The notes: generated by a model from the letters alone, not told the origin. A stretch of 64,000 nucleotides of DNA from Candidatus Woykebacteria bacterium RBG_13_40_15 (GCA_001816655.1 MHCP01000028.1:30309-94308), one strand, 5' to 3'; positions 2,706 to 58,774 are shown, numbered from the stretch's first letter. Made by a program: numbers and translations.

Positions 2706-2801
2706 ACTACGTAACAGAAATTCAAGAATTTTTAGATCGCTGCGCGCTCTGCGACCATTTTATGGACTTGGTACTCCCGCATACTGCAACCACTAAAGTG
2801 G
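2706..2801 (+). repeat. divergent copy E of the structured intergenic repeat (opposite orientation to A)
   Basis: ctacgtaacagaaattc...ttggtactcccgcatactgcaaccactaaagtgg aligns to copy D (ctccgtaactaaattc...ttaggtactctcgagttctgcgaccactaaagtgg). Its central hairpin region is expanded. Confidence 0.45.
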
Positions 2802-2867
2802 GCTAAACACAGGATCCAAGATCGCTTCAAGTAATTCCTCAACCACGTATAACTTCTATCTTAAAGC

Positions 2868-2900
2868 GAAAGAGGCCTCGGAAATTCCAAGGCCTCTTGA
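2868..2900 (-). terminator. GC-rich hairpin downstream of the island-1 ORF
   Basis: aagaggcctcggaaattccaaggcctctt is a perfect 9-bp stem just past the stop of the 2936..3295 (-) ORF. The U-tract is weak. Confidence 0.35.
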
Positions 2901-2935
2901 TTCATCGCTACTCCTCCCCACACACCCCATCTGCT

Positions 2936-3295
2936 CTAAGAAGGAGCGTGCCTAGCTCTATGGAAACCGCAGTTAAGGCAGGTGATACCGAGATCGTCTC
3001 CCCCCTTAACCAGGGATTCCTTTTTATTGCACTTGGGACATCTCACACTGATCAGCACTACTGGGCCTTGATGCCCTTTCGGCGGCATTTCGGAAAGGAC
3101 TTGTACCACTGTTGCCTTCTGGTTGAGCCTTCTCTCCAACCTCGCCGGATCTTTTTCACCCCCGTTCACAATTATCAGAATATCACCGCATATCCGGATT
3201 CTAGCCCTTCCTGGGAGTTTGATGAGTCTCGCCGCCGCTCTCGCTTCAGGCGTCAGCAGCAACAAACCACTTAACATCCTTGTATGGGATTCCAT
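2936..3295 (-). CDS. hypothetical zinc-ribbon protein (GC-rich island 1)
   Basis: 119-aa ORF with paired CxxC (CPKCNKK...CLNCG). High-GC codon usage unlike neighbouring genes. The opposite-strand ORF 2897..3274 is low-complexity and rejected. Confidence 0.45.
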   Translation of the reverse strand: MESHTRMLSGLLLLTPEARAAARLIKLPGRARIRICGDILIIVNGGEKDPARLERRLNQKATVVQVLSEMPPKGHQGPVVLISVRCPKCNKKESLVKGGDDLGITCLNCGFHRARHAPS

Positions 3296-3757
3296 GGCGC
3301 TCTCCTCATCCTGTAAACTTGGGCAACAAAAAACTCACCCGTAAGGGCGAGTCTTGTGTCGCTTATACCACCTTACTTTCCCGATCTGTTACCAAATCGG
3401 GACTATCTAGAACCTCTCGCCTCAAGACCGCTCAAGATTTATCCTGAGCTCACCGAAGGACAAGGTCCATCACGCTGTAACGGGCGCTCCCGGGAAAATC
3501 TATTTACCCACCGAAGCTTTGGCGAAGGCGGGCTTTCAATTCCCCTGCTCCGCAGTGAATGGTTGGGCTAGTCACCTGCCGGGCTTCCACCTTACCCCAG
3601 CTCTCTGTCAGGTTTTCAACACCAACCCCTTCTGCATCATGCGCATTTATCTATTTAATTCGTTTGTTAGTATAAGGAATTTATAACGGCGTGTCAAATG
3701 GGTGGGCAAGCGGCCTCTGCACATCGGTCGAGAGGCCGCTCAGTCTTGTCCAGTTCG

Positions 3758-4231
3758 TTACGCCACTTTGTCCCGCCAAAACCACAAGCCGTTGAACGTA
3801 TCGAGATACGCCTCGAAGATCTCGACGAGCATCCCTAGAGCCTCCTCAGACAGAAGATAGGCCTCGAGAGTCTCTGCCGCTAATAGCTGGAAGGAAACAA
3901 GACCATCGGAACCGCTGATCCTTGAAATAGTCAGCAGATCCTCCGACTGCAACCTCCTTAGATTTGCGAGCAGAAAACAGGCGATTGACACCGCCCTTGT
4001 CCTCTCATCACACCTCCCATCAACTGCACTGAGAACGAGCTTTTCGGCGATTTCCTCCGAAAGTCCGTTTGGCGCAATACGCTCAACTAACTCCTGTAGC
4101 TCTGGCAGCTGAAGCGACACCGCCTGAACGATTACGGGGAAGATTCTCTCCACTATCCATCCTTTCCGCCACCGCCTCTTCCCCACCGCAGCGCGTCGTA
4201 CAATGTTAACAAAAAATCGAACATTTTTCAA
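3758..4231 (-). CDS. hypothetical protein (GC-rich island 1)
   Basis: 157-aa ORF in a ~60% GC block. No recognisable domain. Confidence 0.4.
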   Translation of the reverse strand: MKNVRFFVNIVRRAAVGKRRWRKGWIVERIFPVIVQAVSLQLPELQELVERIAPNGLSEEIAEKLVLSAVDGRCDERTRAVSIACFLLANLRRLQSEDLLTISRISGSDGLVSFQLLAAETLEAYLLSEEALGMLVEIFEAYLDTFNGLWFWRDKVA

Positions 4232-4491: not shown

Positions 4492-5034
4492 TTAACCTAG
4501 TTTTTCTTCTATCTTAGCCAACCTATCCTCTATTCGTCTTAGGACCTCCATTGTCTCAACGTGTGGAGGCGGTCCGTGGTGAGGCGGAGGTGGAGGCGGC
4601 CCGTGATGTCCAGGAGGTGGGGGCGGCGGTCCTGGTTCGTACAGTGGGTTTACTGGTACATCTGCCATTTTTGTCACCTCCTCTCGAAGAGCTTCAACTT
4701 TATTTAATAAATCTTCTTCGGTTTCGTTTTCTGTATCGGCGGTTATTTCTCTACCATCAGGAAACCCATAAATTAGTAACTCCTTGTTTTCGTTATTCTT
4801 AACTCTTAGCGGCAACCTAGTTAGCCAAGGGTACCTGTATCTTATTCGCTCTACTAGTTTATTAATGGCTGCAAGAATTAACTCATCACGGGAGAAATAC
4901 AACACGCCACCGACTTGATAAGAGTTTATTTTTCCATCCTCAGCAAGTCGATAAATTCCCTGCCTATAAAAGTACTTCTTGCCAAGGACTTCTTCTAACT
5001 CTTGGGCTGTACATAAATTAGCTACCTTTTCCAT
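4492..5034 (-). CDS. hypothetical protein with proline-rich repeat (PPPPPPGHHGPPPPPPHHGPPPH)
   Basis: 180-aa ORF. Globular N-terminal part, low-complexity Pro/His tract, C-terminal coiled-coil-like tail. Confidence 0.55.
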   Translation of the reverse strand: MEKVANLCTAQELEEVLGKKYFYRQGIYRLAEDGKINSYQVGGVLYFSRDELILAAINKLVERIRYRYPWLTRLPLRVKNNENKELLIYGFPDGREITADTENETEEDLLNKVEALREEVTKMADVPVNPLYEPGPPPPPPGHHGPPPPPPHHGPPPHVETMEVLRRIEDRLAKIEEKLG

Positions 5035-5254: not shown

Positions 5255-5485
5255 TCAAGCACTCGTATTTAACTCCAAGCTCTCTTCAATTACTTCCAAC
5301 CGCCCATCATGCTTATCAATCCGCTTCCTCTCTAAGTCCAATGCATCCATGTATGCTTTAATTTCTTTCTCTAAATTTAAGAGCGAAACTGTATGGCTGT
5401 CTAGTTTTTCATTTACTGGCTCAAGTTTTTCTTTGAGCGCCTTATTTATTATTTTGTCGATAGCTTCTAAATCTTTTTCTTCCAT
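5255..5485 (-). CDS. small coiled-coil protein (start placed at internal Met)
   Basis: The long ORF 5255..5659 overlaps the ychF start. The conserved-looking part begins MEEKDLEAIDKIINKALKEKLEP... with ATG at 5483-5485. Confidence 0.3.
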   Translation of the reverse strand: MEEKDLEAIDKIINKALKEKLEPVNEKLDSHTVSLLNLEKEIKAYMDALDLERKRIDKHDGRLEVIEESLELNTSA

Positions 5486-5546
5486 AGACTTACAATCTAA
5501 CAAACAAGTATAATACAAGTCAATCTGCCTTTTTGAAAGGTAAAAA

Positions 5547-6428
5547 ATGTTAAGAGTCGGGATCGTTGGATTGCCAAACTCTGGAAAATCTACACTTTTT
5601 AATGCCCTGCTACAGCGACAGATTGCAGAAGTCGCCGAATACCCTTTTACAACTATCAAACCAAATGTCGGTGTTGTTCAGGTACCAGACCATCGACTAA
5701 GCGAAATTTCAAAAGCAACCGGAATCCAAAAGACTGTACCAGCAGCGATTGAATTTATTGATATTGCCGGTCTTGTCAAAGGAGCGCATGAAGGAGAGGG
5801 TTTGGGAAACCAATTTTTAGGACACATCCGAGACGTTGATGTCGTTTTACACCTAGTGCGAGCCTTTCACAATCCGAATGTTCAACATCACACAGATTTT
5901 CCCGACCCCATTAAAGACAGCGAAATTGTAACCCAAGAGCTAAAACTGGCAGAGATCGAAAAGCCAACGATTTATGCGATCAATGCAGACGAAACCGACC
6001 TTTCCGACACTTCTGTCCCAATTGAGGATGCCATTAAAATTTCAGCTAAACTGGAAGCTGAGCTGTCTCAGCTTTCTCCCGAAGATCAAAAAGCCTATCT
6101 TAAAGAGCTTGGAATCGAAAAAACAGGATTGGAAAAAGTCATTTTAGCTTGCTATGAACCTCTGAACCTTATTACCTTTTTCACCATCGTTGGAAGAAAA
6201 CAAGTCCAAGCCTGGCCGGTCAAAAAAGGAACCACCGCCTTAGAGGCAGCTGGAATCGTTCACACTGATATGCAGAAAGGTTTTATAAAAGCTGAAGGAA
6301 TTGAATGGAACAAATTAGTTGAAGCAAAGAGTTGGAAGGCAGCAGCCGAAAAAGGTTGGATCAGACTTGAAAGCCGTGATTACGAAATAAAAGATGGCGA
6401 TGTGGTAGAGTTCAAATTCAATATTTAA
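5547..6428 (+). CDS. ychF: ribosome-binding ATPase YchF/Ola1 (short form)
   Basis: N-terminal P-loop [18 protein letters not shown]-terminal TGS-like end ...[16 protein letters not shown]. Confidence 0.8.
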
Positions 6429-7174
6429 TTAAAGGGGTCTACCCTTCCTAGGGGTTCGCTCGCTGGAAATGTAGTCACCATTATTTGACTTAATAGATCG
6501 TCAATATCTTTTTTCTCAGCCTCAGTTAGACCTACAAATGTACCAGCGCTTGCAACCGCAGGTAAAGAATACAAAGGAAATTCGATACCAACCGTTGCAG
6601 TTATCGCTGACTCACTTTGATTTTTACTAATATTCAAATCTGTCACAGAAGCTACTCTATCCATTTTATTTAAATTTATTAAGAGTCCCAGCAGCGACTG
6701 ATAAGAACCTGAAAAGGAAATTCGCATTTTCGGGGCTGAACTTTGCCCAGTCGTACTTGCACTCTGGGGGGTAGTTTGGCTAACTCCTGACACAGAACTG
6801 TTACCTACCTGTGACGGAGTTTGAATTTGCAGAGCTGAGACTTTCATACCAGAAGCTGCTGCAACAGCTTCAACAAGCGATGTAATCCTCAAATTATCTG
6901 ATTCCGTCGGAAGCAACTTATCCAAAGCTTCGTTATCCTCACTAATTTCCGCTGAATCTAAATTTTTAAGGGTCTGTAAGTTTCTATCTAAGACCTCTAG
7001 GCGGGCCTCATCCTCTTTAATTTTTTCTCTTGCAGAAGACCAGGAATGAAATCTTGGTACCATCACGAAATAAATTAATGAGGCAGAAATTAATAAAGCA
7101 ACGAGTATCCCGGCAATTGTAAAAATCACCGTGTAATTAGAAGTTTTTGCCGCTTTCGATTTATTATCTTTCAT
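6425..7174 (-). CDS. pilO: type IV pilus assembly protein PilO-like
   Basis: N-terminal TM, coiled coil, C-terminal periplasmic domain ending DPF. Lies directly downstream of a PilN-like gene. Confidence 0.55.
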
Positions 7175-14635: not shown

Positions 14636-15271
14636 ATGGCACCCAAAAAGGAAGAGCGAAGCAAAACGATCATACGAAGAATAATCGCTGTCGCCTGTGT
14701 TCTTTTTCTAGTCGCTAGCGGCTTCTTGGGGTTGGCGGTCAGAAATATTCTCACGCCAGCAGGAGCCGCCGCCGAAGAGACCGTCACCAAAGACGATGTT
14801 TGGCTGTCTCAAGGAGCCTCTGTACTACCGGAGTGGGGCGTCGTCTGTGGCATCAGAACACAACCGGTCTCGATGGACGATTTCCACGCAAAGACTTCCG
14901 AAACACCAATCGTGTTCTTAACCGACTTGAAGGATACTACCTGCTGCGGAAGCGATTGGGGAAGTACGCTAAAGATCGTCTATCTCGACATAAACCAGGA
15001 CCCTCCCATCCAAGCAGAGGTGGTCGTCGCCAAAGCAAAGGGCTATCAATACATAGGAAGACGCACTCTCGACAGGGGCACCAGCGGCAAAGACACCGGC
15101 ACTATCACGGTAGAGCTAGCCGCCGACTACAGCTCAGGTGGAAAGAGGGTCGAAGTGATCTTAGGCTTGGTCTTTGGAGGTATATTTGCCCTTGCCGGGA
15201 TAAGAGCTCTGGCCGTCTTGATTATCTACTTGAGGGCTACAGGACCGAAATCGGAAATCGACGTCGGCTGA
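14636..15271 (+). CDS. hypothetical membrane protein (GC-rich island 3)
   Basis: 211-aa ORF with N-terminal and C-terminal TM segments and high-GC codons. The overlapping Arg/His-rich frame 14800..15435 is rejected. Confidence 0.45.
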   Translation: MAPKKEERSKTIIRRIIAVACVLFLVASGFLGLAVRNILTPAGAAAEETVTKDDVWLSQGASVLPEWGVVCGIRTQPVSMDDFHAKTSETPIVFLTDLKDTTCCGSDWGSTLKIVYLDINQDPPIQAEVVVAKAKGYQYIGRRTLDRGTSGKDTGTITVELAADYSSGGKRVEVILGLVFGGIFALAGIRALAVLIIYLRATGPKSEIDVG

Positions 15272-15462
15272 GGGAAGAGATCATTCGGACTCGTGCGGGG
15301 CGTGCGGAACCAGCAACACTGCGCGCCCTGCTTCCCAATCCCCAATTTTCACATTTCATTAAATCAAAACGCTACAAATGTACACACAAATGTAATGTAC
15401 ACACCAGGAGTGTACAATGTTTTAACCGACCTTAGATGATTAGTCGGCGTTAATAAAAAAAC

Positions 15463-15637
15463 CGCTATTACGGCAGCTGGCGTCTTAAAACTTGCAAAAA
15501 TACAAAGAGGAGACGGAAACTGAACGATTAGAGAATTTCCGAGGATGTCCCGAAGTATTTTTGCAAAGTTTTACAGCCAGCGAAGTTTAGCGGAAGTTTT
15601 GGTACCACCTTTCCAAAAAGGTGGTAAAAGTAGTTTA
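15463..15637 (+). ncRNA. candidate structured sRNA / repeat, copy 1 of a 2-copy family
   Basis: ~88% identical to 41758-41926. Long stem gctggcgtcttaaaacttgcaaaaata / tatttttgcaaagttttacagccagc. 3' hairpin ccacctttccaaaaaggtgg followed by an A/T-rich tail. Confidence 0.45.
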
Positions 15638-16081
15638 GGAAAGCTTTTCTTTGACAACACCACTTACCAGGCCCATATCTGCTTTTCCTTTGAGTTTCGG
15701 AGAAAGAACCCCCATTACCTTCCCCATATCCTGCATAGAAGAGGCACTGGTTTCAGCTACTGCACTATCAACCAATTTTCGTATTTCCTCTTCACCCATT
15801 TGTTCCGGAAGATATCCTTGCAATATTTCCAGTTCCTTGCTTTCTTTATCAGCGAGTTCTTGCCTACCCCCGGCTTTATAACTCTCGATCGACTCTTTTC
15901 TCTGCTTTATTTCTTTTTGGATAACTCCTAAAATTTCCTCATCGCTAGGGTTGTAACTAGCACTTTCCTTAGCAATTGCAAAGTTTTTAATTGCGCCTAG
16001 TAACAAACGTAGGGTTGAAACCTTCAACTCATCTTTTGCTTTCTGCGCCTCTATTAAATTTTTTTGAATCTTCTCTAGCAT
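15635..16081 (-). CDS. yqeY: GatB/YqeY domain protein
   Basis: 148 aa. Pattern ...LRLLLGAIKN...EILQGYLP is typical of the YqeY family. Confidence 0.75.
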   Translation of the reverse strand: MLEKIQKNLIEAQKAKDELKVSTLRLLLGAIKNFAIAKESASYNPSDEEILGVIQKEIKQRKESIESYKAGGRQELADKESKELEILQGYLPEQMGEEEIRKLVDSAVAETSASSMQDMGKVMGVLSPKLKGKADMGLVSGVVKEKLS

Positions 16082-17052: not shown

Positions 17053-18636
17053 TTATTCTAGCTTGCTAAAAATTTCAACCGGATCTGCTTCCGTAGCTAG
17101 TTTCTCTTTTTCTTCTTTCTTAGGTTCGGGTGGTCTCTCTCCCACTACACATTTTACCCGAAGTTTCGCTCCTATTACTTCTTCCAAAACGTCTTCAAAC
17201 ATTTCCTTGTACTTTTTTTCCTCGGCTTTTTCTTTATGGAACCTGTAACCAAACTCCAAAATCAATAAATCTTCGTCGACGTTTTTTACTTTTGCGCTAC
17301 TTAAAAATATCCCAAGTGATGAGCTTTTCTCTTTTGCGGCTTTTAGCATTTTAGACCAATTATCATGGAGTTTTTTTAAGATCTTTCCTTCCGAGGGATT
17401 TGGTTTGCTCGGATTTTCTTTTTCAATCTCTTTAGCCACGGCTTCACGGGCTGGTTCTTTTTCAGTTTCCGCTTTGACAACGGCTGGCTCCTCCTCTTTT
17501 GGTTCTTCAGTAACATTAGCAATATCTTTATCTTCTTCAACAATCGCTTCCCCCATTTTATCTAAAGAGCCTTCAACTATTGCTATTTCGAGGGGCAATT
17601 GGGGAATTGTAGAGTCTCGGAGTTGCTCAATTGATTTATTAAACAGATCTGTTAGTTTTAACAATCTTTCCTTGGGCAGTTTTTTGTTCAGCTCGACCAA
17701 AGCTTCAAGTTCTTCTTTGGCAATAGGTTCTAACACAACCCCAGCCCCTGCTTTCACAAGTATTATTTTTCGCAGTATCTCTAGAACTGATTCAGTTAAA
17801 ATACGCACATTTCCACCTTCTTTGAGATAACTATCAAGCCAAATTAAAGACTCTTTTGCCATGCCTTTTTCCAATAGATCAAGCAAACTTATTGACGAGG
17901 CGGTCTCTTTCTTCCCAAGAATCGACAGCGTTTTTTCTAAATCTGCTTTTGTGTCAACAGAGACAACCTTTTCTAGTAGAACCTCGGCATCCCTGAAAGC
18001 TCCTGCTGCCATTTTTGCAATTTCTTCTAAGGAATCGGCGGAAATTCCCCAAGCTTCTTTTTTCACTATGGATGTTAGCTTTTCTTTTATTTGAGAAACA
18101 TCAGGCATTTTGAAATCAAATTTGGTAACCCTTGAGGCTATAGTTGCCGGTATTTTGTGGGGCTCAGTTGTCGCTAAAATAAAAATCGCGTGGGCGGGTG
18201 GTTCCTCCAATGTTTTCAAAAGGGCGTTAAAGGCCTCTCCAGTCAACATGTGAGCTTCGTCGATAATGTAAACCTTGAATTTTCCACCGGCTGGGGCAAG
18301 CTTTATTTTCTCCCGCAACTCTCTAATTTCATCAATACCCCTGTTTGAAGCAGCGTCAATTTCAATTAAATCAAGGTTGGAACCATCAGTGACAGAAACG
18401 CAAACCTCGCATTTGTTACAGGGCTCGCCAAAAACGTTTCCGGTATATGTAGAACAGTTCACCGCCTTCGCAACAATTCGGGCAACTGATGTTTTTCCAG
18501 TTCCGCGAGAACCAGAAAAAAGATAAGCATGGGAAATTTTTCCGCTTTTTAGTTGGGCTAGTAGTTGATCCCTGATTTGTTCTTGGCCTACAACTTCACT
18601 TAAAGCTTGAGGTCGGTATTTACGGTACAAAACCAT
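17053..18636 (-). CDS. dnaX: DNA polymerase III subunit gamma/tau
   Basis: YRPQALSEVVGQE..., AAA+ P-loop GSRGTGKTS, Zn module CNKCEVC. Confidence 0.9.
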   Translation of the reverse strand: MVLYRKYRPQALSEVVGQEQIRDQLLAQLKSGKISHAYLFSGSRGTGKTSVARIVAKAVNCSTYTGNVFGEPCNKCEVCVSVTDGSNLDLIEIDAASNRGIDEIRELREKIKLAPAGGKFKVYIIDEAHMLTGEAFNALLKTLEEPPAHAIFILATTEPHKIPATIASRVTKFDFKMPDVSQIKEKLTSIVKKEAWGISADSLEEIAKMAAGAFRDAEVLLEKVVSVDTKADLEKTLSILGKKETASSISLLDLLEKGMAKESLIWLDSYLKEGGNVRILTESVLEILRKIILVKAGAGVVLEPIAKEELEALVELNKKLPKERLLKLTDLFNKSIEQLRDSTIPQLPLEIAIVEGSLDKMGEAIVEEDKDIANVTEEPKEEEPAVVKAETEKEPAREAVAKEIEKENPSKPNPSEGKILKKLHDNWSKMLKAAKEKSSSLGIFLSSAKVKNVDEDLLILEFGYRFHKEKAEEKKYKEMFEDVLEEVIGAKLRVKCVVGERPPEPKKEEKEKLATEADPVEIFSKLE

Positions 18637-18689
18637 CGCGATGATATTTTACACTAGCCTAGACCTGAAAACAATTGATATAATAAACC

Positions 18690-19049
18690 TTGATGACACC
18701 AGAGGAAGCCTTCGAACAAAAACTTAACGACGTTCCGATGACAGCAGAAGGAAAGGTTATTGAAGTCCTCCCCGATGACATCGGCGAAACCCCACATCAG
18801 CGATTTGTCATAAAACTTGATGCTGGAAACACAATTCTTATCGCCCATAACTTGGAGAGAGCTTATAGAGTACCGGTGAAGCTTGGCGATGAAGTAGAGG
18901 TTCATGGAACTTACAAGTGGAACAAATATGGTGGGCTAATCCACAAAACCCATCACGATGAGCGTGGTGAACACGAGGATGGTTGGATAAATTTAGTCGG
19001 AGTCCATCATCCAGACTTTACCAAACCAGTTGACGCAAAACTAGCTTAG
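18690..19049 (+). CDS. DUF3465-like protein
   Basis: HQRFVIKLDAGNTILIAHNLERAYRVP...HGTYKWNKYGGLIHKTHHDERGEHEDGW matches my recollection of the DUF3465 family. Confidence 0.55.
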   Translation: MMTPEEAFEQKLNDVPMTAEGKVIEVLPDDIGETPHQRFVIKLDAGNTILIAHNLERAYRVPVKLGDEVEVHGTYKWNKYGGLIHKTHHDERGEHEDGWINLVGVHHPDFTKPVDAKLA

Positions 19050-21224
19050 TTTTTTATTTTTCAACCTCTCAATTGCCTGCGAAAGCAACTGAACATATAA
19101 TTCAAACCCAATTAAGGCTATGTTGCCACTCTGGGCTGTTCCGAGCAAGTTACCGGCGCCGCGAATTTCGAGGTCGTGTTTTGCTATTTTAAAACCAGAC
19201 CCTAGCTCCGTACTTTCTGAAATCGCTGCTAATCTTTCCAAACTTTCACCCTCTGGTACATAATTTTTAGGATAAAAGAGATGGGCATAGGCGGCTCTGT
19301 CGGAACGCCCAACCCTACCACGCAGCTGATAAAGTTCTGACAGACCAAACGCTTGAGCATTTTCAATTATGATGGTGTTAACATTCGGCATGTCCAGCCC
19401 CGAACCAATAATCGTCGTACAAATTAGTACATCATATTTTTTCTCATAAAAGAGATCCATAACTTTTTCCAAACTTGTTACCTGCACCTTGTTACTTGTT
19501 ACTTTCCTCTCCATTTGTCCATGAGCAAAAGTAACTCTTGCAGAAGGAACAAGTTTTTGGATTTCTGCCGCTTTTGAGGCTATTTTTTGAACACTGTTAA
19601 AAACATAATAAACTTGCCCGCCTGCCATTGCCTGGCGGCGAAGCTCCTGGCGGGCAGGCCCGCCCCGGAAAATTTCTTTTTCGATTGCTAATTTAACTTT
19701 TTCTTCGTCAAATTCGCCGACCGAAGTTTCAATCGGCTTTCTACCGGCTGGTGCCTCACTCAAAACCGACATATCTCGCAAAGTAGTTAGCGCCAAATTT
19801 AAAGTTCGCGGTATTGGGGTTGCACTTATGGACAAAACATCCACTACGGGTTTTATGGTTTTTAATTTCTCTTTGTGCTTCACGCCAAAACGGTGCTCCT
19901 CATCAATTATCAAAAGCCCTAGATTTTTAAATTCCACGTCGTCACTGAGAAGTCTGTGAGTCCCTATAACAACATCAATTGATCCATCTTTCAGCCCACT
20001 GACAACGTCGACTTGTTTTTCTTTTTCTTCAAAGCGTGAAAGTTTTTCAATTCTTACTGGAAAGCCTTGTAATCTTTCTCGAAATAAATGGAGGTGCTGC
20101 TCTGCTAAAACTGTGGTTGGAACTAAAATTGCCGCTTGGCGACCAGCTTGAGCTACTTTAAATGTCGCTCTAATTGCCACCTCAGTCTTACCAAAACCAA
20201 CATCTCCAACTAAAACTCTATCCATTGGGTGATTGCTTTCCAAATCTGCTTTAATTTCCATCGCTGCTTTCAGCTGATCAGCCGTTTCTTCATATTCAAA
20301 GGCCTCTTCAAGTTGTTTTTGCCAAGGAGTATCAGTACCAACACCGACCCGTGTTGAAAGTTGCCTTTTTGCGTAAAGTTCAAGCAGTTCTTTTGCGTAT
20401 TCCGTAACACTTTCAGTGACTTTTTGCCTTGTCTTCTCCCAAGCGCCAGTCCCCAAGTATGAGAGTGGGACTTTTCTGCCACCAACTCCAATATATTTTG
20501 TAATCCGCTCGATTTGATCTACCGGCACGAAAAGTTTGTCACCCTTCGCGTATTCGACAATTAAATGCTGATTAGTCAGATTTGACTTTCTGCCAGTCTT
20601 TTCATCTGTTTGAGCCAAACCGTCATAAATTTCCTCATCTTGCAACGAAGCGAGACGACCCAATTTTTGAGGCTTCAATGGCACAAGCGACGAGGCGTCA
20701 CAGGTAAATCCAACCTTCCTTGATTCGCGCGGATTTGAAGCAGAAGAAAATTGTTGATCGTCGAGCTTCAAATTAGAAATCCCGATAAACCTCCCAACCC
20801 CATAATCTATATGAACGACCAAATCTCCAGGTTCTATTTCTGATAAAAATAGGCGAACCGAATTCCCTGATTGCAGAGGAAATTTCTTTTGTTTTGTCCA
20901 TTTCGGAGCGATTTTTGGCGTAATACCACAAGCGATTATATACACTTCTTTTAACCTTTTTATTATTCCTTGAGTAAAAATATTGAACATGTAAATATTT
21001 TCAACCTGCTCACCAATTAAGTCGATTCTCACCGGAATTTTGTATCTTTCCAACCAAATATCAATTAAGCCGCCGCGTTTAGAAAACTCCCCGGCTTTTG
21101 CAATCGTACCGGGAGAAATATTTTCGTATCCTAAATTCGTTAATTTAGCTGCAAGAACAGTAGGCGAAACTTTGTCACACAAAGCAATATTTAAACCTGT
21201 TTCATTATATTGATCCATAATCAT
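19041..21224 (-). CDS. mfd: transcription-repair coupling factor Mfd (N-terminally truncated form)
   Basis: SF2 helicase motifs (DEEHRFGV), C-terminal TRCF signature EIRGAGNLLGTAQSG...GFELY. At 727 aa it lacks the UvrB-homology N-terminal modules. Confidence 0.8.
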   Translation of the reverse strand: MIMDQYNETGLNIALCDKVSPTVLAAKLTNLGYENISPGTIAKAGEFSKRGGLIDIWLERYKIPVRIDLIGEQVENIYMFNIFTQGIIKRLKEVYIIACGITPKIAPKWTKQKKFPLQSGNSVRLFLSEIEPGDLVVHIDYGVGRFIGISNLKLDDQQFSSASNPRESRKVGFTCDASSLVPLKPQKLGRLASLQDEEIYDGLAQTDEKTGRKSNLTNQHLIVEYAKGDKLFVPVDQIERITKYIGVGGRKVPLSYLGTGAWEKTRQKVTESVTEYAKELLELYAKRQLSTRVGVGTDTPWQKQLEEAFEYEETADQLKAAMEIKADLESNHPMDRVLVGDVGFGKTEVAIRATFKVAQAGRQAAILVPTTVLAEQHLHLFRERLQGFPVRIEKLSRFEEKEKQVDVVSGLKDGSIDVVIGTHRLLSDDVEFKNLGLLIIDEEHRFGVKHKEKLKTIKPVVDVLSISATPIPRTLNLALTTLRDMSVLSEAPAGRKPIETSVGEFDEEKVKLAIEKEIFRGGPARQELRRQAMAGGQVYYVFNSVQKIASKAAEIQKLVPSARVTFAHGQMERKVTSNKVQVTSLEKVMDLFYEKKYDVLICTTIIGSGLDMPNVNTIIIENAQAFGLSELYQLRGRVGRSDRAAYAHLFYPKNYVPEGESLERLAAISESTELGSGFKIAKHDLEIRGAGNLLGTAQSGNIALIGFELYVQLLSQAIERLKNKKLS

Positions 21225-21296
21225 CCCAACGCAAACAAACCCATTTCTAGAATATGGGGTATGTTTTTATTTAGTTTAGTTGCTGCCTACATTCCA

Positions 21297-21812
21297 CTAT
21301 TTCAGCCAATTAATAACCACTTCGGCCGCTCGCTGAATTGTTTTTTGGATGTCTGATTTTTCTTTTGAGAATCGTTGCAGGACCCAGTCTTCAGTCTCCA
21401 TCGAAACATTGGGTCGGCCAATTCCAACCCGCACCCGACTGAATTCATCGGAGCCCAATGATTCGATAATTGATTCAACGCCCTTGTGGCCGGCGGAACT
21501 TCTGCCAAACTGATGTTTTATTTCGCCAAATTCGAGATCGACATCGTCATGAACTACCAGGAGCTCCTCTGGCTTTATTTTATAGAAATTCGCAATTCGA
21601 TTAACCGCTTTTCCAGAAACATTCATAAAGGTCTGAGGCTTAACTAAAAGTCTCTCATTATCAAGAGTATAAATAATAGAGTCGAATTTCTTATTGAATT
21701 GGGGACTAGCCGCATACGTTGATAAAAGTTCGTCAATCACCATAAACCCAACATTGTGCCGGGTAAATGCATATTTTTCTCCAGGATTTCCGAGCCCCAC
21801 TACTATTTTCAT
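21297..21812 (-). CDS. pth: peptidyl-tRNA hydrolase
   Basis: MKIVVGLGNPGEKYAFTRHNVGF. Confidence 0.9.
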   Translation of the reverse strand: MKIVVGLGNPGEKYAFTRHNVGFMVIDELLSTYAASPQFNKKFDSIIYTLDNERLLVKPQTFMNVSGKAVNRIANFYKIKPEELLVVHDDVDLEFGEIKHQFGRSSAGHKGVESIIESLGSDEFSRVRVGIGRPNVSMETEDWVLQRFSKEKSDIQKTIQRAAEVVINWLK

Positions 21813-24107: not shown

Positions 24108-25409
24108 ATGGCAAAGAAAAAAGCGGCTGGTCAGCCCCCTAACGAGGCTGACTTTACCTTTCCTGAACAAGATACGAAGCTAGACTTCCGTGTAATCAAT
24201 ACCGTTTCGCAACCACGCAAGGAATTCCCCGATATACGAGAGCTAGCTGATAGCATCGCAAGACACGGCTTGCTCTACCCCCTAGTCATCCTAAAACTCG
24301 ATGAGGAGCAATGCAGAAAGTACTTGGGGAACCTAAACGCAATCTGGGAGAGTGAGCACTGTATCGAAGAGCTAACCGTGGTACGCGAGGGGAAAAAGCG
24401 CATTTTCTATCTCCTCCTTGCCGGAGAGCGCCGGCTACGTGCTTATCGCCACTTGTGGAAGAAAGGCTGCAGCGATTGCCTGGAAGTCTACGGCAAGGAG
24501 AAACGCGGCACGTGCTTCAGACGGCACATTTCGGTAGAGGGAATGATACCCACCAGAATCTGCGAAAACATGCCGATTCACGAGGCACTAATCCTACAGA
24601 TGATCGAGAACACGAGCCGTGTCCAGCTATCCCTCAATGATGAAGCACGCGGCCTGGCCTATCTCTACAGAACCTTTCGGATGGCCGATCCCGCTCTTAC
24701 CGTGAAGGACTTCGCTCGTCACTTTGGACGAGGAGAAACCACTGTTAGAAGTGCTCTTCGCTTCTGCAAGTTACCACCCGAGATCCAAGGTGCTGTCGAC
24801 AACGGTAATGATTACGGCAAGCTTGAGTTTGGAATAGCCGTCCAACTTGCCAGACTTCAGGAACACGGTTGCGACGAGGAAGAGCTCCTACACCGTATGA
24901 AAACAGCGCAGCTCGACAGAACCACGGTCCCCGATTTCCGTCAGTCCGTGACGAGCTACCTGCAATTCCTGAGAGGGCAGGGGTGTCTTTTCGATAGCGA
25001 TGTAAGTAGGCGACTTGCAGCACTTGGACAGCACAAACAAATAGTCGAGCGACACATTCTTGGAGCGCTTTACACCCAGCTCCAATACATGTTGACAGTG
25101 ATCCGTCTGTTTGAGAACGGTGATCTTGGAATGGAAGACTCTCCGTTCTCTGTGAGAAGCCCAGTCAAAGTATACCTTCGAGTAGTTCAAACTCTCGCGC
25201 AAGCCCTTCCTCACATGCGCCAGTTCCTGCCGGAGAAAGACCTAGCGATGATTGGGGCAACTTTGGCAGAAGGATTAGAGGTCACACGCATTCTCGAAGC
25301 AGCCTTAGCGGAAGCGAAAGAGACCGGAACGGAAGCACCAGGACCGGAAGAAAAGGAGGTAGGGATCCCGGTTGGTGCTCCTGGGGGCAACTTGCATCAG
25401 CAGGATTAG
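24108..25409 (+). CDS. ParB/Srx-like nuclease-domain protein with Cys-rich insertion (GC-rich island 4)
   Basis: LLAGERRLRAYR is the ParB GERRxRA motif. A downstream Cys-rich segment (GCSDC...GTCFRRH...RIC) sits before the MIENTSR helix. 433 aa with high-GC codons. Confidence 0.6.
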   Translation: MAKKKAAGQPPNEADFTFPEQDTKLDFRVINTVSQPRKEFPDIRELADSIARHGLLYPLVILKLDEEQCRKYLGNLNAIWESEHCIEELTVVREGKKRIFYLLLAGERRLRAYRHLWKKGCSDCLEVYGKEKRGTCFRRHISVEGMIPTRICENMPIHEALILQMIENTSRVQLSLNDEARGLAYLYRTFRMADPALTVKDFARHFGRGETTVRSALRFCKLPPEIQGAVDNGNDYGKLEFGIAVQLARLQEHGCDEEELLHRMKTAQLDRTTVPDFRQSVTSYLQFLRGQGCLFDSDVSRRLAALGQHKQIVERHILGALYTQLQYMLTVIRLFENGDLGMEDSPFSVRSPVKVYLRVVQTLAQALPHMRQFLPEKDLAMIGATLAEGLEVTRILEAALAEAKETGTEAPGPEEKEVGIPVGAPGGNLHQQD

Positions 25410-36340: not shown

Positions 36341-36372
36341 AAACCTCCTATTGTTAGTAAAAATTTCCTAGC

Positions 36373-36450
36373 CCACGTTAGTGGTCGCAGCTTTCGAAAG
36401 TACCCAAATTACTTTTGCGATTAGCAAACGAATTTGGTTACGGAGAATGC
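36373..36450 (+). repeat. structured intergenic repeat element, copy B (between rpsB and tsf)
   Basis: CCACGTTAGTGGTCGCAG-CTTTC-GAAAGTACCCAAATTA-hairpin-CGAATTTGGTTACGGAGAATGC. Stems covary relative to copies A and C. Confidence 0.65.
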
Positions 36451-37746: not shown

Positions 37747-39219
37747 TTATAGCTCGCGCGGGCCATCATAATACTTCCAAAGAAGTGGATGGGCTTTTTC
37801 CGCGAGTTTAAACGCTTTTAGAATTGGCCGTTGGATACGATAGTGAGCACCGGCTCGCGTCCGAAGCCTAAATAAGTGATATGCTTCACGAAGATTAAAC
37901 TCTACCAACATTGGACGTATATGAGCACGAGTTAAAAGGTAATGCGCTGAGAAAGGAAATTTTTTCTCTATTTTATGATATGCAGCATCAACTTTTTTAA
38001 TAACCTCTCTAAAACGTTCTTCCCATCCCATTTCTCCAAATAAATCAGGAATTACGTAACCATAGTCTACAGACGGTGATTTCGTTAGGTAACTTTGTAT
38101 CCTATGTCTCTTGTATTCCCGGACAGTTCCGTAGTCAAAATCAAATTCAAAAAGATAGTAGGTTGCAAATTCTAGATCGCGAATAGTGGGATCATGATAT
38201 TTTTTTCCGGAAAGCGCTTTCTTGATTATTCTTTCTTTTTGCGTCTTTGATAACCTCCTTACTTTATTCTTTATTGATTCGTAACTTGCTTTTGAGTCAG
38301 CGTAAAGAAACGCTGATACAAATCTATCTTCTGCATCTTTGTCATAAGATAATAATTTAACAGCGGTTTCACTGCCCTTGATGACTAATTTTGGAGTGCT
38401 GAAACTTTTTGCTAGTTTTTCCCGAGTTTTGTCAACCTCGGACAAATAAGGGTTGTGGTCGGCGAATCTTACCAAGGTTGGAGTAATTTGGATAGCTTGT
38501 TTTTTTAGTATTTTACCTACTTCGATTGCCTCTTCGTAAGGAGAAGAAAGCAACTTTCTAAGCATATGTTCCATCGTTCGGGCATTTGCAGTCACACCAA
38601 CATTCGATAATCTCCCTGTGGTATGTAAAAATCTTGCATTGTCAGTAACTATTTTTTTAAGTCTTGCTAAATATCCTTTGTCAGTTTCGTTAGGTTTCAT
38701 TTTGCGTTCTGGAAATTTTTTAAGCGATTCTTCGCTTTTTATATATTCGAGTCCAGCTCCGACAAATTTTTCATAAGATTCAAAAAGCATATTTTGCGTC
38801 TCGCGATACAATTTGAGTAACTTTTTGTCTTTTTTGATATCTTTAGGGGTGTAGAAGTATCCAGGAGCGATTACTTGATATCGGGCTGACTGTTCCGTAA
38901 AAGAAGCTAGGCGATTATCGGTAACTTCATCAACTACAAGTGATGAAATACCCTCGCAAGCCAGATGATGAATCGCATGTTCAGCGACTGAGGAATGTCC
39001 ATAACCTTCTACAGAGGCTACCCACCTCTCATGAAAGTTGGCCGCTCCTTCTTCAGTCACTTCTTTTGCCATTTCATCAAAAGGGTTTGGAGACCTAGAG
39101 GTTCTTGCAAAAACGACTGCAATTTCCTCTTCTGTCAGTAATTCGTTTTTTGTCAGCCCTAAATCTTTTTTAATCTGGCCTGTCACGCCCATTGGGTAAA
39201 TTCTTCTTTTGTATTTCAT
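37747..39219 (-). CDS. thyX: flavin-dependent thymidylate synthase ThyX (tandem-domain long form)
   Basis: ThyX-like serine motif region ...FTEQSARY, second RHR-containing segment (YKRHRIQS), and C-terminal ...FRLRTRAGAHYRIQ. At 490 aa it is about twice a single ThyX. Confidence 0.65.
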   Translation of the reverse strand: MKYKRRIYPMGVTGQIKKDLGLTKNELLTEEEIAVVFARTSRSPNPFDEMAKEVTEEGAANFHERWVASVEGYGHSSVAEHAIHHLACEGISSLVVDEVTDNRLASFTEQSARYQVIAPGYFYTPKDIKKDKKLLKLYRETQNMLFESYEKFVGAGLEYIKSEESLKKFPERKMKPNETDKGYLARLKKIVTDNARFLHTTGRLSNVGVTANARTMEHMLRKLLSSPYEEAIEVGKILKKQAIQITPTLVRFADHNPYLSEVDKTREKLAKSFSTPKLVIKGSETAVKLLSYDKDAEDRFVSAFLYADSKASYESIKNKVRRLSKTQKERIIKKALSGKKYHDPTIRDLEFATYYLFEFDFDYGTVREYKRHRIQSYLTKSPSVDYGYVIPDLFGEMGWEERFREVIKKVDAAYHKIEKKFPFSAHYLLTRAHIRPMLVEFNLREAYHLFRLRTRAGAHYRIQRPILKAFKLAEKAHPLLWKYYDGPREL

Positions 39220-39279: not shown

Positions 39280-39822
39280 TCAGACTTGTTTTTCTTCCTT
39301 CTCCGTTGTCACCCGACCGCCTTGCCACTGACCGCGGTACATCGAACCTTTACCAGCTACTTCCCAAAATATAATGTGTAGTATTCTAGCTCCAAGTTCC
39401 ACAGTAAAATCCGCATTTCCCATATTTTTTAGGCCCACATTCAAGGGGCCTTTGTAACCTGGGGCAATTTGAGTGGTCAGAAGCCATACACCCGAACGCA
39501 GAAGTGTTGATCTTGGATGCATTGTAGCAACTAAGTAATCCGGAAGGTTAACATTTTCCACTGTCTGAACCAAATAAAATTCACCAGGTTTAACTGTAAA
39601 AGAAGTTTTCTTTTTCGGATCATATTTTGCAACGGAAGTGTGACTGACTGTTTTTCTTTTTTCTTCGCCGAGAAAAGTCTCTCCCTCTATTTTGAAAATT
39701 TCACCAAGCCGAAGATCCAAACCGGCACCCTCAGGATTTTCTAAATCCCGCTGCCCCAAATCCTCGACAAGATGGGTTTTTTTAATTAACTTTTTAATTT
39801 TGTCTACACCTAATGCTCCCAT
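39280..39822 (-). CDS. dCTP deaminase/dUTPase-superfamily protein (paralog 3)
   Basis: HPRSTLLRSGVW...APGYKGPLNVGL matches the RSxxxRxG...DPGxxG pattern of the Dcd/Dut fold. Confidence 0.6.
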   Translation of the reverse strand: MGALGVDKIKKLIKKTHLVEDLGQRDLENPEGAGLDLRLGEIFKIEGETFLGEEKRKTVSHTSVAKYDPKKKTSFTVKPGEFYLVQTVENVNLPDYLVATMHPRSTLLRSGVWLLTTQIAPGYKGPLNVGLKNMGNADFTVELGARILHIIFWEVAGKGSMYRGQWQGGRVTTEKEEKQV

Positions 39823-39838
39823 ATTTTTAATTCGTAGC

Positions 39839-39915
39839 CCACTTAAGTGGTCGCAGTATCCAAGAGTACCTAAATAATCAAGGATTATCGAAGATTATTT
39901 TGTTACGTAGGATAC
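39839..39915 (+). repeat. structured intergenic repeat element, copy C
   Basis: CCACTTAAGTGGTCGCAG-TATCC-AAGAGTACCTAAATAA-hairpin-TTTGTTACGTAGGATAC. The outer stem TATCC/GGATA covaries with AACTC/GAGTT in copy A. Confidence 0.6.
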
Positions 39916-39938
39916 TATCAACCAACACCTAAAGCCAT

Positions 39939-40424
39939 TTATGTAGATCCTTCCAGTTTACTTGGTTCTGGTTTTGTATGATCATACCTTGATCTGTAAC
40001 CTTCAACAGGACTGTCCACTTCTTCGAACAAAAGCTGGCAAATTGCCAATCCCGAACGCAAAAGAACCGGCTTTTTCGAGAGATTTTTCATAGTTAAAAT
40101 CGGCTTTCCTGAGTAGTTTGGTGGAAGCAGGTCGGCGTCAAAGGTAACTAAAATTCCAAGCCTGGCAAAACTCGAACGAGGAATAATCCTTGCCACCAAG
40201 TTGGAGGGCAGGGTGATTGTCTCGATTGGATTAGCGAGTAAAAATTCATCAAGTGAAAGGTGATAGTCTTGCAAATTTATTTCTTTTCCGCTGTCGGGAT
40301 TGAGCGCTTGGTTGCCAAGACGAAGATCCACACTGACAGCCCCAACTTGAGATTCGTCGTACGGATCGATTTTTATTTCCCCTTCCTTTACATATTTTTT
40401 AATAGTTTCTCCAGAAAGTACCAT
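39939..40424 (-). CDS. dCTP deaminase/dUTPase-superfamily protein (paralog 2)
   Basis: IIPRSSFARLGILV...NYSGKPILTM is Dcd-like. Confidence 0.6.
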   Translation of the reverse strand: MVLSGETIKKYVKEGEIKIDPYDESQVGAVSVDLRLGNQALNPDSGKEINLQDYHLSLDEFLLANPIETITLPSNLVARIIPRSSFARLGILVTFDADLLPPNYSGKPILTMKNLSKKPVLLRSGLAICQLLFEEVDSPVEGYRSRYDHTKPEPSKLEGST

Positions 40425-40429
40425 TAAAA

Positions 40430-41023
40430 TTACTCCTTTTTTCGACTTTTACTTGTAAACTCCTGAAAAAGTCTCGATGAATCTGGCGCTTTTTGTCCGG
40501 CGTACTTAGAACTTTTTCTTTGCGTATAGGAAATATCGACTGGGGAAGAAAGCGTTTCAAAAGTAAAAGAGCAAATTTTCATACCCGGATACAAAGCAAC
40601 TGGCATTACTCCAATATTTCCAAGCTCCATTACCGGTTTCCCGATCCAGCCAGGATCAAATCTAGCAGCTGTAGAATGAACTATAATTCCAAGACGGCCC
40701 AAGGAGCTTCTTCCTTCTAGGCGTGCTAGGACATCGTTTGCAAGTTCCAATTCCTCAACGGTTGTGGCCAAAACAAATTCTCCTGGCCTCATAATAAACT
40801 GTTCATTATCTGGGATTTTGATTTCTTTCATTACTTCGCTCGAAAGGTTGGGGTCTTTCGGATCAATATAGGGATATCTTGAATGGTCAAAAAGTCTAAA
40901 AGTGTTGCCTAGATAAAAATCTATTGTGCAGGGCCCAAGTTGTTTTGCTAAATCTGGTTTTGGTTTAATTTTTATTTTTCCGCTTTTTAAGTATTTGCGT
41001 ATGTCTTGGTCTGACAAAATCAT
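40430..41023 (-). CDS. dcd: dCTP deaminase
   Basis: LEGRSSLGRLGIIVHSTAARFDPGWIGKPVMELGN is the canonical Dcd core. Confidence 0.75.
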   Translation of the reverse strand: MILSDQDIRKYLKSGKIKIKPKPDLAKQLGPCTIDFYLGNTFRLFDHSRYPYIDPKDPNLSSEVMKEIKIPDNEQFIMRPGEFVLATTVEELELANDVLARLEGRSSLGRLGIIVHSTAARFDPGWIGKPVMELGNIGVMPVALYPGMKICSFTFETLSSPVDISYTQRKSSKYAGQKAPDSSRLFQEFTSKSRKKE

Positions 41024-41029
41024 AAAAGC

Positions 41030-41700
41030 CCTCTTTGTGGATTTAGAATAGCACTAGTGTGGAAACTTGACAATCCCTGAAAAAGAAGATTTTTAAGTGG
41101 CTCTTGGGGTACAAAAAACTCTCCCAAACCATCCTTCGAAAATAAGAAGGATGACTTAAGAGAGGACCCGAGACGTCGCATTGTCAACATGAACGCCTCG
41201 GGCTTGATCCCTCTCCGTTGGGTCTGCATCATTGGTCTAGGGGCCGCTATAAAAAAGCTGCGTGCCGACGTATCAACGCGCAATCGTCCTTAGAAAGGAC
41301 ATTTGCCCCCGACTCAAGTTCCCAATCAGCCACCACTACCGACTATACCTCCATGCGTCAGCAGCGGCTAAGGATATAGACTGGGAACACTAGCAGGGCG
41401 GGTCTCTTCCGATCTTCTTCTCCAAGATCGCCTCCTTCTTACGTTGCAGAAAAGGACACCCTCCGGTAAACATCAGTCGCTGTCGGTCCTACCAGGGATC
41501 TTAACTTTCCGGATTATCGTTTCTTCCCTTGACTCTCGGACGAGCCTTTCTCCAAGCGCGGGGCGCCCATTAGGAGTGGAAGTGCCCTCTCCGGACTACT
41601 TACGGACCGTTCAGCTCCCTCAAAACTATCTCATCAAACTCCGCTTTGTGACACAGTCTTGAGGGATACGAAGGGTATAAAATAATCTTAAACCATTATA
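41030..41700. other. GC-rich (~57%) non-coding block, possible structured RNA
   Basis: No convincing ORF; the 87-aa frame 41020..41283 is low-complexity. Composition contrasts sharply with the flanking AT-rich genes. The ~170-nt repeat copy 2 follows immediately. Confidence 0.25.
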
Positions 41701-41757
41701 TAACACTAATGCAAGTTTTTGGTTGTAAGGTACCCTTTTTACGGAAATTATTATACA

Positions 41758-41926
41758 CGCTATTATGTAGCTGGCGTCTTAAAACTTGCAAAAATGTGAG
41801 AGAAACGGAAACTGACCGAAGAGAATTTCCGAGGCTCCCGAAACATTTTTGTTTAGTTTTACAGCCAGCGAAGTTTAGCGGAAGTTTTGGTACCACCTTT
41901 CCAAAAAGGTGGTAATAAAGATTTTA
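41758..41926 (+). ncRNA. candidate structured sRNA / repeat, copy 2
   Basis: Paralog of 15463-15637 with compensatory changes in the long stem (aaaaatgt/acattttt vs aaaaata/tattttt). Identical 3' hairpin ggtaccacctttccaaaaaggtggtaa. Confidence 0.45.
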
Positions 41927-42052
41927 AACACTCGGCAATCTATAGATTTTCACACGCTGGATAGTCCAGGTGTATGCTTCCTCAATTTCAAAATACTTCG
42001 ATATTTATTGAATCAAAAACAACCCCTCGCTTGTTGCAAATTTTAGAAATTT

Positions 42053-42370
42053 ATGCTAAAAAAGGAGCGACTGGCCAGGGCTGAAAAGGAGGCAGCCATG
42101 GTTACTATGTGCAAGGTGCCGACTGGCACCGAAGACACACTTCTTGCGGGACTGGGAGAGCTGGGAAAGGAGGTCGAGATAGCGGTCGCTACAGGAAGGC
42201 TAAACACAGAGAAGGGTATCACTGACGCCCTACGGGATGGCACAGTGCCAATAGCCGTAAGGCACCGAGTAGACGGCGTTCTTCCTCCGGAAAAGGCAGA
42301 GGCAATCAGAGCCTGGAGGAAGGAAGTCGAAGCAAGACTTCTTGGAGGAATTGGGATTGAGCGACCATAA
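42053..42370 (+). CDS. hypothetical protein (GC-rich island 8)
   Basis: 105-aa ORF with high-GC codons. The antisense ORF 42043..42375 is an alternative. Confidence 0.35.
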   Translation: MLKKERLARAEKEAAMVTMCKVPTGTEDTLLAGLGELGKEVEIAVATGRLNTEKGITDALRDGTVPIAVRHRVDGVLPPEKAEAIRAWRKEVEARLLGGIGIERP

Positions 42371-42450
42371 CACACCTGGCCAGTTCAAGTAGCGGCCTTG
42401 CTTCGCATGGAATGCGCAAACGGAGCAGGGCCGCTCAACTATTTACAAGA

Positions 42451-48055: not shown

Positions 48056-48096
48056 TTCTTTATTTAAGTATTGCCCCTTGTCGTTTACTTGTCAAC

Positions 48097-50661: not shown

Positions 50662-50725
50662 AATTAAATTGTAGGATTCAATTTCTGACCTGTCAACTTG
50701 GACGGGGAATAGGAACCAGAGCCCT

Positions 50726-58657: not shown

Positions 58658-58687
58658 TTCGATCTAAGATTTAAGATGTAAGATATA

Positions 58688-58764
58688 GAACTCTCCGTAA
58701 CTAAATTCGTTCGCTTTCGCGAAAGTAATTTAGGTACTCTCGAGTTCTGCGACCACTAAAGTGG
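58688..58764 (-). repeat. structured intergenic repeat element, copy D (canonical, uninterrupted)
   Basis: The reverse complement is identical to copy A with the 71-nt insertion removed. It lies just upstream of the ATG at 58775. Confidence 0.7.
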
Positions 58765-58774
58765 CCTAAAGATT

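Follow-up and report, generated by a model that had tools for sequence, protein, structure and literature searches.

The DNA analysed here, a window of 64,000 nucleotides, lies on a 141-kb contig of the MAG of Candidatus Woykebacteria bacterium RBG_13_40_15, an uncultured groundwater bacterium of the CPR group. Within this window, a repeat unit was found in two copies, both in + orientation: copy A at 15463–15627 (165 nt) and copy B at 41758–41915 (158 nt), which scored 209.9 and 189.1 bits, respectively, with a covariance model built from the two (R1). The + orientation is that in which copy A was first described. Copy A is located between convergent genes, namely a membrane-protein ORF on the + strand, whose stop is at 15271, and yqeY on the − strand, whose stop is at 15635. 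Copy B, on the other hand, separates divergent units, with a structured RNA on the − strand at one side and the ORF 42053–42370 on the + strand at the other; this ORF has its own promoter-like motif, TTGCAA-17-TAAAAA, which lies downstream of copy B and is kept in the relative L070. Given these opposite contexts, no single one-strand cis role (leader, 3′ UTR or terminator) suits both copies. In particular, the + strand cis-regulatory leader put forward in the first-pass annotation was not sustained, as copy A leads into a convergent gene at its 3′ end, and copy B precedes a gene with a conserved promoter of its own downstream of the unit.

Alignment of both copies with MAFFT yielded 144 identical columns out of 168, with 24 columns differing, and the blastn core of the pair extended over 153 nt at 88.9% identity (E 1e-35), in line with the two approximately 88% identical copies reported earlier. 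Of the limits given there (15463–15637 and 41758–41926), the left ends were confirmed, while the right ends had been set about 10 nt too far. Identity begins sharply at CGCTATTA (15463 and 41758) and stops equally sharply after GGTGGTAA (15627 and 41915). Beyond these points, to the left and to the right, likeness between the flanks falls to the level of shuffled sequence: copy A is bordered by AAAAAAAC and AAGTAG and copy B by TTATACA and TAAAGA, with nothing shared or duplicated. A segmental duplication including the 3′ end of yqeY was rejected for the dissimilarity of these flanks.

The differences between the copies are unevenly distributed, since they amount to 3 of 39 columns in the 5′ part and 19 of 65 in the apical part, but 0 of 61 in the 3′ part. 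The three separate 2-nt indels are all central or apical, and the final 61 nt are invariant, the unpaired linker included. By our own arithmetic, the absence of any difference over 61 nt is improbable at a uniform rate (about 2e-4), which points to selection or to a recent conversion tract. Because of the indels, and because chance ORFs fall in different frames, the copies share no coding frame; a small ORF was accordingly rejected as the identity of the unit.

A common fold was obtained for both copies, comprising a closing helix, an imperfect palindrome of ~105 nt, a 10-nt linker and a separate 10-bp hairpin. On the + strand of copy A, the closing helix P1, reading CGCUA...UAGCG, pairs 15463–15471 with 15585–15592 (span 15463–15592; RNAalifold helix 1, 7 pairs). 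The palindrome (15476–15581) encloses a 6-bp GC clamp, GCUGGC/GCCAGC (15476–15481 with 15576–15581), and above it an A/U-rich stem of 17–18 bp (15486–15503 with 15555–15573); its apical inner hairpin, CGGAAACU...AG..UUUCCG (15514–15541; helix 4, 8 pairs), is invariant between the copies. There follow the unpaired linker GAAGUUUUGG (15593–15602), which is the same in copy B, and the terminal 10-bp hairpin UACCACCUUU-CCAA-AAAGGUGGUA (15603–15626). On the + strand of copy B, the palindrome occupies 41770–41869 (clamp 41770–41775 with 41864–41869; stem 41780–41797 with 41843–41861), the apical inner hairpin 41806–41831 and the terminal 10-bp hairpin 41891–41914; in this palindrome, a 3-nt change from CAA to UUU has opened an internal loop. 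All three components described from the first reading, namely the long stem, the inner hairpin CGGAAA...UUUCCG and the terminal CCACCUUU/AAAGGUGG hairpin, were hence found in A and B. The inverted-repeat arms, of 26–27 nt, correspond to unit positions 14–41 and 93–119, and the conserved sequence continues for 13 nt and 46 nt beyond them. The left edge of the unit itself coincides with the start of the closing helix, and its right edge lies 1 nt past the terminal hairpin.

Minimum free energies on the + strand were −61.5 kcal/mol for copy A and −60.8 kcal/mol for copy B (z −6.1 and −6.6 against dinucleotide shuffles), and those on the − strand −56.4 and −56.6 kcal/mol (z −6.9 and −6.3), so that the + strand fold is 4–5 kcal/mol better in both copies. 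Near-equal folding of both strands is what is expected of a DNA palindrome, and therefore the fold does not identify the strand. With regard to the covariation that had been attributed to the stem, an AC/GU versus GU/AC swap does exist between the copies (alignment columns 40/94 and 41/93, two adjacent pairs), but it lacks statistical support: with two sequences, 2 of 50 pairs were compensatory, a figure equalled in 139 of 500 column shuffles. Paired changes in quasi-palindromic DNA can, furthermore, arise from template switching, without selection on an RNA. Two one-sided changes in the stem, each a single event, stay paired as G-U on the + strand only.

The sequence following the terminal hairpin on the + strand is AAAGTAGTTT in copy A and TAAAGATTTT in copy B, and on the − strand it is ACCAAAACTT. 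In neither copy does a T-run follow this hairpin on either strand, nor was it flagged by the terminator scan. The terminal hairpin is thus not a canonical intrinsic (Rho-independent) terminator, contrary to the hairpin-terminator end initially proposed; T-tract terminators do occur elsewhere in this genome. At the opposite end of copy A, and of this copy only, a T7 run directly follows the closing helix on the − strand and was flagged as terminator-like (15454–15478), whereas copy B has no T-run at its minus-strand end.

Promoter-like hexamers were detected in copy B only, on both strands. The − strand of copy B contains TTGCAA-18-CATAAT (41762–41791; 9 of 12 positions matched, a consensus match only), which faces the structured RNA and dcd; its counterpart in copy A, TTGCAA-19-CGTAAT (15472–15497, −), is poor, CGTAAT being the −10 equivalent. 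On the + strand, copy B shows TTTACG-17-TATTAT, with the −10 inside the first bases of the unit, while copy A has no acceptable −35 and TATTAC as its only −10. No promoter is conserved between the copies upstream of the unit on either strand, where the flanks are unrelated.

An Rfam scan and a covariance-model search, both suggested in the first-pass annotation, were carried out. Rfam 15, which covers 6S, SRP, T-box, tmRNA, ribozymes and known sRNAs, gave no gathering-threshold match in the 64-kb window; at E ≤ 10 the best score on 15350–15750 was 17 bits, against thresholds of 40–80, and at E ≤ 1 the sole match on 40900–42500 was a 22.6-bit miRNA model. There are no tRNA or tmRNA genes within the window. 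Neither R1 nor nhmmer retrieved a third copy from the window plus 1.37 Mb of DNA from relatives or pattern-matched records, the covariance model returning the two window copies only. Exact 20–26-mers of the unit were absent from the genome, metagenome and viral contig collections searched, and blastn of the unit against phage and plasmid records gave no match. A gapped pattern derived from the motif shared with the relative L006 had 38 genome and 5 viral matches, which we regard as chance, as they come from unrelated taxa and none fits the covariance model. A Pfam scan of the window ORFs detected no transposase, TnpA, RAYT or TnpB, and no integrase or recombinase near either copy.

Several known RNA classes were considered individually and discarded. 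On the − strand, GGUGGUACC resembles the T-box core, but the order of elements is wrong and no Rfam T-box model matched; CUGANCGA carries one extra base relative to the hammerhead core and likewise had no Rfam match; the central bubble of 6S RNA is absent, and there was no match to it. Retron msr-msd, omega-RNA, bridge RNA and tracrRNA were set aside for want of an RT, TnpB, IscB, IS110 or Cas gene nearby. An attenuator was rejected as well: the 5′ half of the terminal hairpin is able to pair with the 3′ arm, but a leader peptide and a T-tract are both missing, and copy A is without a downstream gene.

We also compared the two sites with the corresponding regions of relatives whose CysRS and TopA are 78–84% identical to those of the window. 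The same gene order is maintained over the whole 26 kb between A and B, and consequently the junctions of both copies can be taken as genuine and an assembly artefact as unlikely. Site A, the yqeY-cysS spacer, is a turnover hot spot in the clade: it is a 182-nt spacer in L006 and L007, accommodates an opposite-strand ORF of 88 aa in L001 and opposite-strand ORFs of 190 aa and 90 aa in L119 and L122, and holds CorA in L003 and L123. The unit is absent from this site in L001, L003, L119, L122 and L123. In L006 and L007, the spacer keeps only a 43-nt relic, TTTTTGCAAGTTTTAA plus GCCAGTTTCATAATAGCG, which corresponds to the 5′ end of the unit on the + strand and is split by a 20-nt hairpin; this match may be either a relic or an ancestral seed. 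Without the 20-nt insert, the L006 motif reads TTGCAA-17-CATAAT and faces cysS. In the relatives, a hairpin devoid of a T-tract is present immediately after yqeY.

Small opposite-strand genes, near-orphans that differ from genome to genome and encode hydrophobic, membrane-like segments, repeatedly occupy the yqeY-cysS spacer of the clade (window 14636–15271, +; L119 9010–9872, −; L122 117–979, −; L001 9720–9986, −). Most of them are GC-rich, with a GC3 of 0.55–0.58 vs. 0.35 in host genes, and that of the L001 ORF is 0.44. In the window, this gene is island 1, a 211-aa ORF outside the unit (14636–15271, +) with N- and C-terminal membrane segments and a GC3 of 0.58 compared to 0.35 for host genes. 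A word search among 5.8 billion proteins found no relative of its product, and a single one (P0254; 38% identity, E 2.6e-11, same layout) was found among 1.84 billion representatives; the structure of the island 1 DNA is not unusual. Elsewhere in L006, what is probably an integrated element lies beside ychF at 17590–21398 and comprises several small ORFs along with genes for a serine recombinase and an HTH_17 protein; the window has none of these at that place.

Site B is the topA-dcd spacer. In L070, L124 and L126 it consists of topA, a small opposite-strand ORF, CNNM, a small ORF with a terminator, the structured RNA and dcd, and the unit is absent; in the window, 92 nt, copy B and 32 nt occupy the place of CNNM and the small ORF. 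The small opposite-strand gene next to topA is conserved (window 42053–42370, +; L070 12084–12314, −; L124 4997–5227, −), and the GC-rich block next to topA is this gene and not an insertion; its protein is fast-evolving and its promoter region conserved. After dcd, the relatives have ThyA and DHFR, where the window has a 490-aa ORF that appears ThyX-like by eye; the regions concerned by this replacement and by the absence of CNNM are 37747–39219 and 41916–42050 in the window and 5332–6561 and 9207–10648 in L124. Three consecutive dCTP-deaminase/dUTPase-like paralogues (39280–41023, −) form a triplet that is conserved in the relatives.

The block at 41.0–41.7 kb, also outside the unit, contains no ORF and corresponds to a conserved structured RNA (41105–41700, −). 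It is preceded by a conserved TTGCATTnnTGTTATATAATG motif at 41694–41714 and has a 19-bp terminator hairpin with T6 at 41119–41164 (−). Its − strand folds at −251.9 kcal/mol (z −6.6) and its + strand at −194.9 kcal/mol (z −2.2). This GC-rich RNA of ~550 nt, located immediately upstream of three dcd genes and without an Rfam match, is kept in four Woykebacteria (window 41105–41700, −; L070 14046–14556; L124 6954–7504; L126 8673–~9040), and its closing helix AGCUGAUCGGUC/GACCGACAGCU is maintained in L126 by one A-U swap together with changes to U-G. This RNA may represent either a large ncRNA of a new type or a leader of dcd.

Further features of the window were recorded. A second repeat family, unrelated to the unit, has members of 50–80 nt with the core GGTACTCTCGAG..CTGCGACCACTAAAGTGGGCTA, at 1623–1700 (−), 2770–2807 (+), 36369–36420 (−), 39828–39875 (−) and 58686–58775 (+); where checked (the ORF at 58775 and dcd at 39822), they lie within about 10–25 nt upstream of the start codon, and the family has the appearance of a common module, either a 5′ leader or a promoter. 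Beside a GC-rich block at 2897–4231, a 180-aa HTH protein is encoded at 4492–5034 (−), in a 90%-identity cluster with a protein on a 938-kb CPR contig; as the CysRS and TopA of that contig are only 60–62% identical to those of the window, the sequence comparison suggests recent horizontal transfer. A run of GC-rich blocks at 24.1–27.8 kb surrounds a GC-rich (52%) 433-aa ORF with ParB N-terminal and HTH domains (24108–25409, +), the other ORFs there being without a Pfam match, and may represent a mobile or plasmid-derived segment. At 46238–54148 (−), three large paralogues arranged in tandem (605, 854 and 1140 aa) have a conserved 158-nt 5′ end in common. Outside the window, the RBG_13_40_15 bin includes a second CysRS (P0034; 63% identical) on an 8-kb contig, and the bin may mix two organisms.

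Taken together, the unit is real, fits no described family and is ordinary in kind. Our leading interpretation, held tentatively, is a lineage-specific, low-copy intergenic palindromic repeat, in general kind similar to ERIC, Correia or MITE elements, that was copied as a discrete unit. This is based on its sharp edges and unrelated flanks, its non-coding nature and intergenic location in opposite contexts, its absence from orthologous spacers, its foldability on both strands and its conserved ends around a variable centre, the usual pattern of non-autonomous repeats; no Rfam family matched, and neither the window nor the 1.37 Mb of DNA from relatives and pattern-matched records yielded a third copy. 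Other observations speak against it. The inverted repeat is internal, the ends of the unit not being inverted copies of each other, and no target site is duplicated; only two copies exist in the 64-kb window, which has no transposase; the complete identity over the 61 nt, unpaired linker included, points to selection or recent conversion; the coincidence of unit and helix edges would also be compatible with an RNA gene; and, with less weight, the two one-sided changes preserve G-U pairing on the + strand only.

As such a repeat, the unit would have resided in the variable yqeY-cysS spacer and then have been copied once into the topA-dcd spacer, where this lineage lost the CNNM gene. To judge by the relic in L006, the unit has probably been at site A for a long time, which speaks against its recent insertion at this place. 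Spread would have proceeded by copying, either through non-autonomous transposition or templated by repair or RNA, rather than by vertical gene descent. Its effect would probably be passive, a transcribed unit forming a very stable hairpin that could end or protect neighbouring transcripts. On the − strand, copy A begins about 5–7 nt past the yqeY stop, and a T7 run comes after it, an arrangement that would place a hairpin at the end of the yqeY transcript, whereas copy B may offer an outward promoter-like site, TTGCAA...CATAAT, toward the structured RNA and dcd.

That the copies are instead paralogous genes for trans-acting sRNAs of ~165 nt on the + strand, one of the candidates named in the first-pass annotation, appears unlikely to us. 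The closing helix and long hairpin would then serve as scaffold, the linker GAAGUUUAGCGGAAGUUUUGG as functional or seed region and the 10-bp hairpin as guard of the 3′ end. A discrete, strongly structured unit bounded by helix edges is consistent with this, as are the fully conserved 3′ part (unpaired bases included, against 19 of 65 differing apical columns), the better + strand folding of A and B, the two compensatory pairs with the two G-U-compatible changes, and the TTTACG-17-TATTAT of copy B. However, conservation is lacking upstream of the unit on both strands, copy A is without an acceptable −35, the hairpin is not followed by a T-tract in a genome that uses T-tract terminators, neither the relatives at 78–84% protein identity nor the searched collections contain a homologue, and the covariation, not significant with two sequences, is of a type that template switching can produce. 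More improbable still would be a so-far undescribed CPR structured RNA copied at exactly RNA length. This is prompted by a unit that begins where the closing helix does and stops where the 3′ hairpin does, with no terminal inverted repeats, target duplication or co-copied promoter; if true, it would fit reverse-transcription-mediated sRNA duplication or a new non-autonomous element recognised via its folded single strand, and the fully conserved 61 nt of linker and hairpin would be the portion under selection. We also consider doubtful that the unit is a cis module native to the yqeY-cysS spacer, whose hairpins would end or stabilise the yqeY transcript on the − strand and whose TTGCAA...CATAAT would be the promoter of the next transcription unit, with copy B as a secondary one giving insulation and a promoter before the structured RNA and dcd after the loss of CNNM and its terminator. 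The position of copy A just past the yqeY stop with its flagged T7, the T-tract-less hairpin directly after yqeY in relatives, the retention of TTTTTGCAAGTTTTAA and GCCAGTTTCATAATAGCG in L006 with a promoter-like reading toward cysS, the flagged promoter-like site of copy B, and the fact that copy B stands in for the segment of CNNM, small ORF and terminator all argue for such a module. Nevertheless, at copy B no − strand gene reads into the unit and no T-run follows it, a conserved promoter motif belonging to the structured RNA itself is located 60 nt downstream, the −10 equivalent of copy A is poor and the site there points into a + strand gene in antisense direction, and most relatives do without the unit.

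An association with GC-rich islands had been noted at first reading, each copy being described as abutting one. Both copies do lie 80–120 nt from a GC-rich block, but among the ~12 such blocks of the window only these two have the unit beside them, the other ~10 arguing against a general association. One of the candidates put forward at first reading was that the unit is the 3′ end or an att-like boundary of inserted elements, here taken as horizontally inserted islands; that proximity, together with the near-orphan gene and foreign-looking GC3 of island 1, would favour it. We consider this highly improbable proposal to be refuted, and the unit not to be tied to GC-rich islands: the block at 41.1–41.7 kb is vertically conserved in L070, L124 and L126, all without the unit; the islands share no sequence, whereby homology among them was rejected; the yqeY-cysS spacers of relatives hold other GC-rich opposite-strand genes without it; and neither an integrase or recombinase nearby nor a direct repeat or partial second copy of the unit at the far side of either island was found. 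An assembly artefact, by chimeric joining or collapse of a repeat in a metagenome contig, has next to no likelihood. The second, 63% identical CysRS on another contig of the source bin would favour it, and the 61-nt identical stretch could mislead an assembler; against this, gene order on either side of A and B is that of the relatives over tens of kilobases, and 24 differing columns are not those of a duplicated read pile.

CPR genomes, of about 1 Mb, are generally regarded as containing few repeats and little mobile DNA; to our knowledge, almost nothing is known about CPR non-coding RNAs. A discrete repeat copied inside such a genome would imply that some copying mechanism is active there, and the unit marks two fast-turnover spacers in the clade. 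Were it an expressed RNA, it would be among the very few candidate sRNAs of the CPR group. The neighbouring ~550-nt conserved structured RNA, which belongs to no known family, may matter more than the repeat.

Returning to the low-copy palindromic repeat as the favoured reading, the unit was compared with known systems. As in integron attC sites, copy A has a small orphan ORF upstream of an imperfect palindrome whose stem contains extrahelical bases. However, the stem ends CUUAAAAC (TTAAAAC) and GUUUUAC do not fit RYYYAAC/GTTRRRY, the copies are single and dispersed without an array or intI, and copy B follows a conserved RNA gene and not a cassette ORF; with the core sites absent and no integrase in the window, attC identity was rejected. 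Multi-copy sRNAs such as Qrr and PrrF keep promoters and a T-tract terminator, neither of which is seen here, although they are similarly discrete units of ~100–200 nt with a conserved unpaired stretch and a 3′ hairpin, comparable to our two diverged copies. The IS200/IS605-derived PATEs and REP/BIME sequences are also short and intergenic, with hairpins near an end and without terminal inverted repeats or target duplication. They differ from the unit in that its ends do not bear similar hairpins (there is one at the right end only), no common tetranucleotide precedes its left end (AAAC vs. TACA), and no TnpA, RAYT or TnpB is encoded in the window. Correia elements of Neisseria and MITEs have terminal inverted repeats and a TA or short target duplication, in contrast with the internal repeat and lack of duplication of the unit; they share with it a length of 100–170 bp, inverted-repeat arms of ~26 bp and conserved ends with a variable centre, and are able to supply the genes next to them with signals resembling promoters and terminators. 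The ERIC or IRU sequences of enterobacteria are imperfect palindromes of about 127 bp in transcribed intergenic regions, present in tens to hundreds of copies. Compared to them, the unit has no sequence similarity, is seen twice (in a 64-kb window), is extended beyond the palindrome by a closing helix, a linker and another hairpin, and resides in a CPR bacterium. What it has in common with ERIC is the size class, a core formed by a long imperfect palindrome, a strictly intergenic and non-coding character, presence or absence at orthologous spacers, and the capacity to give a long RNA hairpin from either strand.
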